Assembly: GCA_964016885.1 (NCBI GenBank) | Contig: OZ024740.1 | Coordinates: forward strand, 51,212,001 to 51,276,000 | Source of the DNA: Eledone cirrhosa | Taxonomy: Eukaryota | Direction: 5' to 3' | Length of the DNA stretch: 64,000 nucleotides | Shown: in pieces, positions 7,201 to 49,662 of the stretch | Layout: the number at the start of each line of letters is the position of its first letter | Position numbering within the stretch: position 1 is the stretch's first letter | Notes under the pieces: generated by a model | Told to the model about the DNA's origin: nothing | Database searches by the model: none | The model's input: only the letters and a program-made list of their open reading frames with translations | Program-made: the position numbers and the translations under genes

Positions 7201-10200
7201 TTATTTAGGTTGTGTGTGCATGTGTCTTTTTATGTCAAATACTGTGTGCTGAGTTCTAAACTGTTATTTATTTGTGGTTTAAGTCTATGTATAAGGAAGG
7301 CTTTCTTAATTCTTAAATTGCCAACATTTCTCTCTCTGGCGTCAATATTGACTGTTGTGTTTTTGTTGGTATTTTTGCAGTTGTCAATGTGTTTTTTTAA
7401 TGACGATGCGTGTGTGTTGAGGTGTTCTTTAGTGTGGGTGTGGAGCGCTCGAGTCATGCTACCAATGTAGAGCTTACATTTACTGCATTCAATTCGGTAT
7501 ACCACATGTGTGTCATAATGAGACTGATGAATGAGAATGCATGGGAGGAAGATCATCTGCCCTAAGTAAACCCAACAGCGGAACCAGAAGCTTAGTAAAG
7601 GAAGCAATTATGGATATGAAGACAGGCAAAGCAGCTGGGCCATTGGGAATAGTTGCTGAGATGCTGAAAGCATCTGGAATGGTAGGACACACCAGAACCA
7701 ACCATATTATAAACCAAATAATACAAAATGGTGCCATAACCAATGACTGATATACCAGCAGCATCATCAATTCCTAAAAGGGCAAAGGTGATCCACTAGA
7801 CAGGGGAAACTATCAAAACACCAAATTGATGGACCGGGTCATGAAAGTTACAGAAAGAGTCATTGTACAACTTATTAGGGACTGAATTAACCTAGATGAA
7901 ATTCAGTTTGGATTTGTGCCAGGTAAAAGTACCACTGATGCCATCTTCCTTGTGAAGCAACTGCAGAAGAAGTTCTTGGCAAAAACTAAGCCTCTCTACT
8001 TGGCATTTGTTGACCTGGAGAAAGCATTTGAAAGAATTCCCCATTCCGTAATCTGGTGGGTGCTTAGGAAAATAGGAGTAGATGAGCAGCTTGTGAGGGC
8101 AGTACATGCCATGTATAGAGGAGCAGTCAGCAAGGTTAGAATTAATAATGACTGCAGTGAGGATTTAGTGCGTGTGGGAGTTCACCAGAGTTCTGTTCTT
8201 AGCCCTCTCCTGTTTATTATCATCATTCAGGTTATAACAGGCTGCCCATGGGAACTCCTATATGCTGATGATCTAATTCCCATAGCTGAATTTAAGGCAG
8301 AATTAGATAAAAAAAATTCCAGACCAGGAAGCGTAACTTGGAATCAAAAGGTCTTAAAGTTAACTTAGCAAAGACTAGAAAGTAAAAGGGAAAACAGAGC
8401 CCTGATTCTTTCGAAGAAATGGCCTTGCTCAGTGTGTAGGAAAGGGGTGGGTAGAAATATCCCCCTTTCTCCCAAATGGCAAACTATCGGTACACAAGAG
8501 ATGTAGTGGGATCGCAGGCAGGCTAGCAAAGAACATAGGTTTTACATGTGGTCAATGCACAGGAGCAGTAAGCAGCAAGCACTCAAAGGCTCTATCAAAT
8601 TTTTAGTGGGTTCTGTAGAAGTATGTAGTTGACAGCTTCTGTTACCTGGATGACAAACCAAATTAGCTGTGGAGGTGGGTGTTCCGAAAGTACAGTAACC
8701 AGAGTGAGAATGGGACGGACCAAGTTCAGGGAGTTACTACTGCTGCTAGCTACAAAAGCTTTTCCCCTCAAAATGTAGGGCAGATTGCATGATGTGTATA
8801 TATGAACAGCAATGCATTGGAAGTGAGATGTGGCTGCTGTGTGCAGAAGACCTGTGAGGATTGGAAAGAAATGATGCTTGCATGCTCCAATGGACATGTA
8901 ATAGTAATATACATGAACTGAGAGAGAAACTGGGCATATGAAAGGTCAGATGCAGTGTGCAAGAGAGGAGATTGTGATGGTATGAACATGTGATGTATAT
9001 GGAGGATGAAACATATACACACAAAATGCACAATTAGGAATAGCAACTGTGTTTACTTACGAGAGGAAATTGATCAGAATCTGATATAAAAAAAAAAATA
9101 ATTATTATTATATGTAAAGTAAACCACAGTATTAAAACATACATTTATTGCTAAGCAATCCATTTAAATTCTTGAAACTCTTGCCCACATACAAATATAG
9201 GCAAGAATACAGACACACATAAACATAATCTAAGTGAATCAAATCTGTGTGCCTTTTTGATCAAAAGATAACAAAATTAACACAAAGACAAAAATTTATA
9301 TAAAACACAGACACTACATGGAAACACATACATAATTTCCAATAAATTGAAAAAAATTACAAATACCTTTAATTTATTTACAAATCAAGGTATGTACCTC
9401 ATCAGAAGGTATGTATATCATATAAACCACAAATAAATACATAATAAAAGGGCTTATATACCCTTTTGACAAGGAACCCAGTACTTCCTTGATTTGTGGT
9501 CTTCCCAGACAACATACACACACACTCTCTCTCTCGCTCTCTCTCTATATATGTGTGTGTGTGTGTGTGTGTGTGTATATATATATATATAGAGACGACC
9601 CGTCTAACCCATGCAAGCATGGAAGAATTAACGCTAAACAGAAATGATGATATATATGTATACAAGTATATATATATATATACATTATATATATATATAT
9701 ATATATATTTATTAAAATAACAGATATAAAGTTTAAGCAAAGAATCGCTGCTTTCACCCTTAACGGGATCTTCTGAAATATTTATCCTTATCGAGCCCTC
9801 TTTGGATTTTAGTCTTCAAATTTATTATTATTACTATAAATAAATATATATATATATTCATCATCATCATCATCAAGGTTTAGTGTCCGTGTTCCACGCT
9901 TGCATGGGTTTGGACGGGGGTTTTCCCACTTGAGGCAAGAGTGGTTGTCTTGCTCGCATAGGACTGTCTGGCGGGTTTTCTACAGCTGGATGCCCTTCCT
10001 AACACCAACCACATTTACAGTGTGGGGCTGGGAGGTTTTTACCGTGTTGCCTACACGGCCACATTTACAGCGTGGACTGTGTTTTTTTGTCGTGACACCT
10101 ACACGATCTCATTTGTTTCGGCCTGGATGTTGTGGACCCAACATAACTTTACATTGAAAGGGGCGGTGTGGATGGGGTGGGGGTGGTGGGACGGGGGTGT

Positions 10201-49662: not shown

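Follow-up and report, generated by a model that had tools for sequence, protein, structure and literature searches.

A predicted octopod ABIN-1/TNIP1-type gene in Eledone cirrhosa joins a UBAN-like helix to a RanBP2/NZF-type zinc finger

The stretch of 64,000 nucleotides of the Eledone cirrhosa genome analysed here (contig OZ024740.1, positions 51,212,001 to 51,276,000; hereafter the window, within which all positions are given) carries on its minus strand a fifteen-exon gene predicted to encode, in one chain, an ABIN-1/TNIP1-like coiled-coil protein with a UBAN-like helix and a C-terminal RanBP2/NZF-type zinc finger. We regard it as virtually certain that the predicted gene is real, and as very likely that it belongs to the ABIN family. 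With good confidence, though somewhat less, we also place it in the ABIN-1 line as the octopod ABIN-1/TNIP1 orthologue, a placement made by homology and not by tree or reciprocal search. A preliminary description of the window, written from its letters alone, had proposed an ABIN-1/TNIP1-like gene joining these two modules, and the collinear single-protein orthologues described below bear that proposal out.

A splice-site scan followed by joining of the candidate exons recovered fourteen minus-strand exons from 49662 to 9061, all bounded by GT-AG introns, which together give 1305 nt of uninterrupted frame, or 435 codons. Exon 14, which ends at 9061, runs into a splice donor rather than a stop codon, and a tblastn search with the tail of an orthologue found the terminal exon at 5989-5858 (25.4 bits, E 0.003). 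The complete predicted frame therefore has 15 exons, 1437 nt and 478 residues, with GT-AG introns in 14/14 cases (Table 1). The preliminary description had placed 15 exons and 440 codons within 9061-49662, a span in which we recovered 14 exons and 435 codons and whose frame ends in a donor; its end point does not stand. Its positions for the UBAN-like exon (32266-32391) and for the exon of the finger (17953-18063) are exact, and both are flanked by strong acceptors and donors. Alignment of the 14-exon model with the orthologues shows no gap calling for an extra exon inside 49662-9061, ordered tblastn matches of the orthologue P0004 at or above 26 bits cover 10/15 exons (the exceptions being exons 6, 8, 12, 14 and 15), and a search with exon 7 indicates that the gene is single-copy in the 3.0-Gb genome. 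The acceptor at 49673 suggests that a 5' untranslated exon lies upstream of coding exon 1. One candidate exon of 42 nt (17552-17511) was rejected because it brings a stop into the required phase.

The finger exon, exon 13, is symmetric (phase 1-1), and the introns that precede it are of phase 0 in 9/12 cases; a symmetric exon set among mostly phase 0 introns would fit a gain of the finger by exon shuffling. Reading through the donor of this exon leads to a stop at 17948 and a form of 429 residues, and P0003, the short record of O. vulgaris, terminates there too. The short form may represent intron retention, since a donor of such sequence creates a stop by itself.

When exon 7 was searched against the representative protein library it found one protein, P0003 (E 9.4e-10), which is the O. 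vulgaris record CAI9726153/4 named 'protein BCAP' and whose cluster includes a 468-residue form common to O. vulgaris and O. sinensis (XP_029638525/6). P0003 in turn gave 3 matches among 6617 candidates, of which two were further proteins: P0005, a Logan protein, and P0006, an Argonauta protein named 'BCAP-like'. P0005 is a frame of 467 residues on a 2026-base contig and for that reason probably derives from a spliced transcript. In the orthologues of O. vulgaris, O. sinensis and Argonauta, as in P0005, the UBAN-like helix and the finger occur in a single chain. The three aligned orthologues are all collinear with our model, at identities of 54.7% (P0004), 53.2% (P0005) and 45.9% (P0006), and blastp of the 478-residue model against the orthologues gave E values of 1e-105 to 1e-154. 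Octopod comparisons throughout this work use four sequences from one order, namely the window protein, O. vulgaris, P0005 and Argonauta. Across them conservation is highest in the N-terminal block (28/40 positions invariant), followed by the UBAN helix (25/40, or 62%), and 13/25 positions of the finger are invariant. Fold prediction for an orthologue returned long helices and a poorly modelled finger (pLDDT 61.7, pTM 0.21).

Protein searches with this gene reached no species beyond the octopods, which we ascribe to search sensitivity because Aplysia-type proteins exist (see below). Exon 7 alone had 0 matches among 26 candidates of a word-indexed protein search, two ESM Atlas searches gave no match at 0.9 or above, a scan of metagenomes produced 596 pattern matches of which 0 were confirmed, and a search of the PDB with the N-terminal block returned no relative.

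The family assignment draws on several comparisons. A four-row profile of the orthologues run against the PDB matched ABIN-2 (5h07, E 0.0043) and ABIN-1 (7eao, E 0.015-0.079), the only UBAN matches at E<=1, with no NEMO and no optineurin match at that threshold. The Argonauta sequence alone matched ABIN-2 first and ABIN-1 next, and the AHD1-UBAN stretch has ABIN-2 (5h07) as its best PDB match. The orthologues have neither an EABR match nor a CCHC finger by Pfam, nor any match to PF11577 or PF18414. The finger exon of the window matches PF00641 at E 4.2e-8 and 32.8 bits (cut-off 27), so that the zf-RanBP match expected in the preliminary description was obtained in full, and the CC2-LZ match expected beside it only below the cut-off.

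Comparison with vertebrates was made by eye and without gaps against a 23-row alignment of vertebrate TNIP1 (supplement of PMC7697625; this and the other papers cited here by PMC number were covered in part, and statements drawn from them extend to those parts). The N-terminal block shares 10/21 residues with human TNIP1 F25-L45, the AHD1-like segment 7/15 with human E410-E424 and 9/15 with Xenopus, and the UBAN 13/37 with human L461-L497. With a second block and a Trp block there are in total five TNIP1-like blocks, in the order of vertebrate TNIP1. Motifs written for the N-terminal, second and Trp blocks each occur in 3/4 octopod sequences, in 0/2 ABIN-2-type proteins and in 0-1 of 20000 shuffles. 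Vertebrate ABIN-1 had been described as lacking an NZF, and the combination of UBAN and finger was indeed not among the vertebrate TNIP1 rows examined, nor was there a four-Cys finger at their C-termini in the last alignment block, which covers 14/23 rows (PMC7697625, covered part).

Two related genes lie elsewhere in the genome. An ABIN-2-type gene (G000:C2:411656742-411661435; L015, L016) has an intact UBAN and a terminal CCHC finger; its orthologue P0007 matches ABIN-2 best and also has Pfam EABR, and in O. bimaculoides the orthologue goes under the name 'centrosomal protein of 55 kDa', which is probably a mislabel as well. A two-row UBAN profile matched 3/101 candidates, all of them octopod ABIN-2-type. 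A NEMO/optineurin-type gene (G000:C17:12329973-12332953, minus strand; L069) has a UBAN fragment and a PF18414 finger ~3 kb apart. With ABIN-2-type and NEMO-type genes thus assigned to other loci, ABIN-1 is the best assignment for the gene of the window. Three PF11577 matches were also seen in the genome, and the two that were translated proved to be unrelated frames.

The UBAN helix departs from its relatives at residues that matter for linear chains. In NEMO the linear-chain surfaces are formed by F312, R316, R319 and E320, and a triple mutant of the matching surface in Drosophila Kenny gave no stabilisation of linear chains (PMC6462001). By spacing, the equivalents in the window protein are F286, H290, R293 and M294: R316 has become His and E320 Met or Leu in 4/4 octopod sequences, with the F312 and R319 equivalents retained in 4/4. 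The Arg/Arg/Glu set contacts the proximal ubiquitin and the Asp-Phe pair the distal one. Linear specificity requires contacts to both ubiquitins (PMC5413910). All four linear-chain residues are retained in the ABIN-2-type proteins, and an intact DFxxERxxRE motif is found in 0/4 octopod sequences of this gene, 2/2 ABIN-2-type proteins and 22/23 vertebrate TNIP1 rows (PMC7697625 supplement). The Asp whose mutation abolishes ubiquitin binding by human ABIN-1 (D472; PMC7697625, PMC8286839) has a retained equivalent, and the UBAN Asp-Phe is present in 4/4 octopod sequences. Replacement of the R316 and E320 equivalents in all four sequences speaks against a UBAN that reads linear chains. The preliminary description had thought it possible that mixed chains are read; for such a role of the UBAN we find no support. 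The helix is not decaying, given its share of invariant positions. The change is likewise not explained by loss of the ligase, since the HOIP linear-chain domain is present in the genome at C1:341483498-341485053 and C1:342236898-342238453. A complex prediction of an orthologue UBAN dimer with linear di-ubiquitin had a median of 0.27 against a mark of 0.34. The two copies of the HOIP domain have identical scores and lie ~753 kb apart, as either a recent duplication or an assembly duplicate.

NZF fingers are defined by Thr-Phe/Tyr together with a hydrophobic residue within the second pair of Cys, and additional conservation between or after the Cys pairs is tied to a second binding site (PMC11372445). 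In the octopod finger the four Cys, the Trp before the first of them and the Asn between the pairs are present in 4/4 sequences, the hydrophobic residue of the second Cys pair is Val or Ile in 4/4, and the motif position reads Thr-Leu in the window and O. vulgaris and Thr-Tyr in P0005 and Argonauta. The finger is conserved between and after its Cys pairs; Trp-x-Tyr-Asn and Arg-Lys-Pro are invariant (n=4). Among solved structures the window finger matches those of Nup153 best, then HOIP NZF1 (4owf, E 2e-4) and RYBP. We file the finger of this genome as RanBP2-type and NZF-like, with ubiquitin binding predicted from sequence. The 'canonical NZF' of the preliminary description holds for the scaffold (four Cys, Trp, Asn, PF00641), and 'canonical' was an overstatement for a motif that reads TL and not TF/TY. 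There are twelve other PF00641 matches elsewhere in the genome, among them fingers that we take to resemble those of RYBP, TRABID, HOIL-1L/SHARPIN, Nup153 and RanBP2.

The AHD1 core motif is present in the window protein and absent in 3/3 orthologues. An exon-wise search of the genome, which gives a lower bound, found no A20-like gene among 8 OTU and 6 zf-A20 matches; one zf-A20 frame, on C20, presumably belongs with OTUD7/Cezanne and not with A20. Recruitment of A20, which the preliminary description had raised as a possibility, is unsupported with the core motif in 1/4 octopod sequences and no A20 among these matches. A20 is present in Aplysia and oyster (PMC9334734 supplement). A loss of A20 in octopods, if true, would fit an eroded AHD1.

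Beyond the octopods, the Aplysia transcripts XM_005092502/3 are labelled TNIP1 by best human match and sit in two co-expression modules, one with a ZNFX1 hub (antiviral/NF-kB), which also contains A20, and one with an NFKBIA hub (PMC8195618). The Aplysia proteins XP_005092559/XP_005092560 are listed among RanBP2-finger proteins (PMC9334734 supplement); their orthogroup, OG0002324, also contains EKC31123.1 of oyster and XP_013067907/12 of Biomphalaria (PMC9334734). Transcripts and proteins were linked through an accession offset of +57, which held in 4/4 pairs found (6 tried). The Aplysia pair would thus combine a TNIP1 label with a RanBP2 finger as this gene does, in a comparison made by annotation and not by sequence. 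TNIP1 with a RanBP2 finger is therefore probably molluscan-wide and already present in public annotation, and the architecture appears not to be octopus-specific. The preliminary description had allowed that the architecture might already be common in lophotrochozoans; one-protein annotation in other octopods and its apparent presence in Aplysia go some way towards this and reduce the novelty in part. In the open literature on invertebrate ABIN/TNIP (subscription papers lay outside this scope) we found, judging by literature listings and the openings of abstracts, no description of a TNIP1-plus-finger architecture; PMC8195618 and PMC9334734 contain it without comment in the parts covered, and PMC6341066 and PMC4234419 report TNIP2/ABIN-2 transcripts only, again in the parts covered.

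Several points weigh against reading the gene as a ubiquitin-binding octopod ABIN-1. The UBAN falls under the Pfam cut-off in 5/5 scanned proteins (15-27.5 bits where listed, against 35.3): the window exon scores 17.7 bits against CC2-LZ (E 0.0049), and Argonauta, at E 4.3e-6, is still under the curated cut-off. The single Argonauta sequence also matches NEMO, weakly (E 0.13), after the two ABIN proteins, and the octopod ABIN-2-type family, compared profile to profile, scores weakly (9.7% probability, E 0.0033). The shuffle counts overstate significance because the motifs were written after both sequence sets had been seen. Vertebrate TNIP1 has ~60 residues separating its Trp block from AHD1, and a proline-rich tail, for both of which the gene has no counterpart. 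As for the finger, the Thr-Leu of the window and O. vulgaris lies outside the TF/TY definition, and the best solved matches are Ran-binding fingers, those of Nup153. The OrthoFinder orthogroup of the Aplysia proteins contains no human protein, and no fly member either (PMC9334734), and the function proposed below is argued from homology and from co-expression in a different mollusc.

The mechanism that we favour as a whole, with modest confidence, is that of an octopod ABIN-1 which docks on ubiquitin mainly through its finger, whose UBAN lacks linear selectivity, and which dampens NF-kB. The protein would be a coiled-coil adaptor, in keeping with the long helices of the orthologue's predicted model, and by family precedent would act as a parallel dimer. 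It would dock on ubiquitinated signalling proteins mainly through the C-terminal NZF-type finger, whose patch of Thr-Leu/Tyr and Val/Ile may, going by what is known of the family, contact the Ile44 face of ubiquitin. The two fingers of a dimer, together with the retained Asp-Phe half of the UBAN, could supply avidity in the way that NEMO gains it from its C-terminal finger, and the remodelled UBAN helix has likely lost its selectivity for linear chains. Trp-x-Tyr-Asn and Arg-Lys-Pro of the finger may form a second surface with a preference either for one linkage, most probably the Lys63 type, or for a substrate that carries ubiquitin. The output would be competition with NEMO, and hence dampening of NF-kB as in the A20-independent model of ABIN-1 action, with linear-chain sensing left in Eledone cirrhosa to the ABIN-2-type and NEMO-type genes.

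Other readings share parts of this evidence. Following the preliminary description, the protein would be an A20-recruiting adaptor and a sensor of mixed chains, here taken as one whose UBAN reads linear and whose finger reads Lys63 chains. The AHD1-like segment of the window does match ABIN-2 (5h07) and TNIP1, D285, F286 and R293 are retained, the catalytic domain of LUBAC is in the genome, and the A20 of Aplysia shares a module with one TNIP1-labelled transcript; but the R316 and E320 equivalents are replaced in every octopod sequence and the Kenny triple mutant fails on linear chains (PMC6462001), the AHD1 core is confined to one sequence in four, and the lower-bound search for A20 came back empty among its 8 OTU and 6 zf-A20 matches, so that we think this reading rather unlikely. 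Unlikely too, if a shade less so, is that the finger serves as a substrate reader in the manner of HOIP NZF1, binding ubiquitin and a UBAN coiled coil at once, either that of NEMO or its own, with the altered surface as a dock. HOIP NZF1 is positioned with ubiquitin on one side and the UBAN of NEMO or optineurin on the other, and conservation between and after the Cys pairs, as in the 13/25 invariant positions of this finger, is the pattern tied to second sites (PMC11372445). HOIP NZF1 (4owf, E 2e-4) is moreover the best match to the window finger outside Nup153, and a docking role would account for an altered UBAN that stays 62% invariant. Similarity among such fingers is generic, however, and the comparison covers four sequences of one order. 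A bolder form of the same idea, equally tentative, makes the molluscan ABIN-1 a one-chain version of the HOIP-NZF1/NEMO-UBAN pair, in which an NZF exon was shuffled in, ubiquitin reading passed from the UBAN to the finger, and the linear-chain face of the UBAN became a dock; the finger would then recognise site-specific ubiquitination on UBAN coils, of NEMO or its own, and the spliced tail would switch the output.

Two further readings would take ubiquitin out of the account. An ABIN-1-derived scaffold that has largely lost ubiquitin binding and works by way of its N-terminal coiled coil, with the tail serving, for instance, selective autophagy, would suit the TL finger of the window and O. 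vulgaris, the altered UBAN, the N-terminal block with its top conservation (28/40 invariant), and the motif F-x-E-[IV] in the tails of the window protein and P0005, which we take to resemble an LC3-interacting motif. Yet the finger reads TY in 2/4 sequences, 4/4 retain its Thr, its hydrophobic third residue and the Asp-Phe of the UBAN, and the tail motif occupies a shifted position in O. vulgaris and is missing from Argonauta, all of which makes this very unlikely. Were the NCBI name correct, the gene would encode a BCAP-like structural coiled-coil protein and its ABIN resemblance would be coiled-coil noise, as the source names ('protein BCAP', 'BCAP-like') and the UBAN scores under the Pfam cut-off might suggest; five ordered TNIP1-like blocks speak against this, however, and Pfam and PDB searches gave no BCAP-related match. 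The source labels are also unreliable here, as the same sources call an ABIN-2-type protein 'centrosomal protein of 55 kDa'. We consider this last reading extremely unlikely and conclude that 'protein BCAP' on the NCBI octopod records is most likely a mislabel and that the gene is already in the databases, unrecognised as ABIN-type.

Set beside known systems, the octopod ABIN-1 as we assign it follows the order of vertebrate ABIN-1/TNIP1: N-terminal block, second block, Trp block, AHD1-like segment (matched in the window protein), then UBAN, with the D472 equivalent retained. It differs in a C-terminal RanBP2/NZF finger added after a further coiled coil, in His and Met/Leu as the equivalents of R477 and E481, and in length (478 versus 636 residues, with ~60 residues before AHD1 and the proline-rich tail missing). 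With ABIN-2/TNIP2 it has in common the best PDB match of AHD1-UBAN (5h07), a short AHD1-UBAN spacing and a C-terminal finger after the UBAN, whereas in ABIN-2 the DFxxERxDRE motif is intact and the finger is of CCHC type; the separate C2 gene represents that type here. The finger itself shares with HOIP NZF1, RYBP/YAF2, TRABID, TAB2/3 and HOIL-1L the scaffold W-x-C-x2-C-x3-N-x6-C-x2-C, with Thr and a hydrophobic third residue; we know of none of these proteins with a UBAN in the same chain. NEMO and optineurin also pair a UBAN with a C-terminal ubiquitin-binding finger, which in NEMO raises the affinity for Lys63 chains (PMC5413910), but their finger is of another class, they are absent among the PDB matches of the orthologue profile, and a separate C17 gene is of their type.

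The tail motif F-x-E-[IV]-D-[SG]-P-P (window 5939-5983) belongs to the long form only, is common to P0005 and is shifted in O. vulgaris; we take it to resemble both an LC3-interacting motif and a caspase site. The last ~20 codons (5858-5916) come from a short repeat of which the window has 12 copies; a 48-bp tandem array at 25415-25869 accounts for nine. The orthologues stop before this repeat-derived end. About 600 bases downstream of the stop codon begins an AT microsatellite of 2.3 kb (2936-5236), outside which the GC content of the window is 34-46% and remnants of retroelements are abundant. A nearly full LINE-type retroelement lies on the plus strand at 12298-15298, within the 8.9-kb intron after the finger exon, its endonuclease and reverse transcriptase interrupted by a stop and a frameshift, and partial LINE copies occur near 10247-11145 and 41148-42303. 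At 19166-20100, inverted arms of 85 nt and 41 nt flank a broken frame that has no Pfam match and that is presumably a mariner-type transposase.

Table 1. Coding exons of the predicted ABIN-1/TNIP1-type gene in window coordinates, with the encoded features (aa, residues of the predicted protein).
Feature	Position	Strand	Encoded part and remarks
Exon 1	49569..49662	-	ATG at 49662, acceptor at 49673; start of TNIP1-like N-terminal coiled coil, aa 1-31; tblastn match
Exon 2	46871..46971	-	N-terminal coiled coil, continuation, aa 32-65
Exon 3	45915..46037	-	Low-confidence linker, aa 66-106; disordered in the predicted model of the orthologue
Exon 4	43738..43860	-	Second coiled coil, TNIP1-like EL.[KR]L[AS] block, aa 107-147
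Exon 5	42567..42628	-	Coiled coil, aa 148-168
Exon 6	37368..37449	-	Last part of coiled coil, then variable linker, aa 168-195; aligns, no tblastn match >=26 bits
Exon 7	36354..36551	-	TNIP1 conserved Trp block followed directly by AHD1-like segment (aa 226-240); aa 196-261
Exon 8	34227..34277	-	Linker and start of UBAN-like helix, aa 262-278
Exon 9	32266..32391	-	UBAN-like helix, aa 279-320; D285, F286, E289, R293 retained
Exon 9, detail			H290 and M294 in place of Arg and Glu of the DFxxERxxRE motif
Exon 10	29211..29294	-	Coiled coil after the UBAN, aa 321-348
Exon 11	23836..23907	-	Coiled coil, aa 349-372
Exon 12	21674..21731	-	Short helix and linker, aa 373-391; aligns, no tblastn match >=26 bits
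Exon 13	17953..18063	-	RanBP2/NZF-type zinc finger, W-x-C-x2-C-T-L-x-N-x6-C-x-V-C
Exon 14	9061..9080	-	20 nt, tail of the long form; aligns with orthologue tails; ends in a donor
Exon 15	5858..5989	-	Terminal coding exon, outside the span of the preliminary description; tail motif F-x-E-[IV]-D-[SG]-P-P, then repeat, then stop

These findings re-identify a cephalopod gene that is most likely mislabelled and, with the assignment proposed here, fill the ABIN-1 slot of the octopod NF-kB pathway beside ABIN-2 and NEMO. They do not add a new pathway, as the parts and the principle of UBAN plus finger are already known. What the gene offers is a natural experiment on the ubiquitin code, in which a constrained UBAN with two fixed changes at linear-chain residues is fused to a second reader of a finger class not known to be paired with UBAN in the vertebrate proteins. 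If the one-chain reading were true, vertebrate ABIN-1 would represent just one of two ways of meeting a common task. A comparison of octopod, Aplysia and oyster would tell whether gain of the finger preceded, and freed, the change in the UBAN, and so bears on how linkage specificity evolves.

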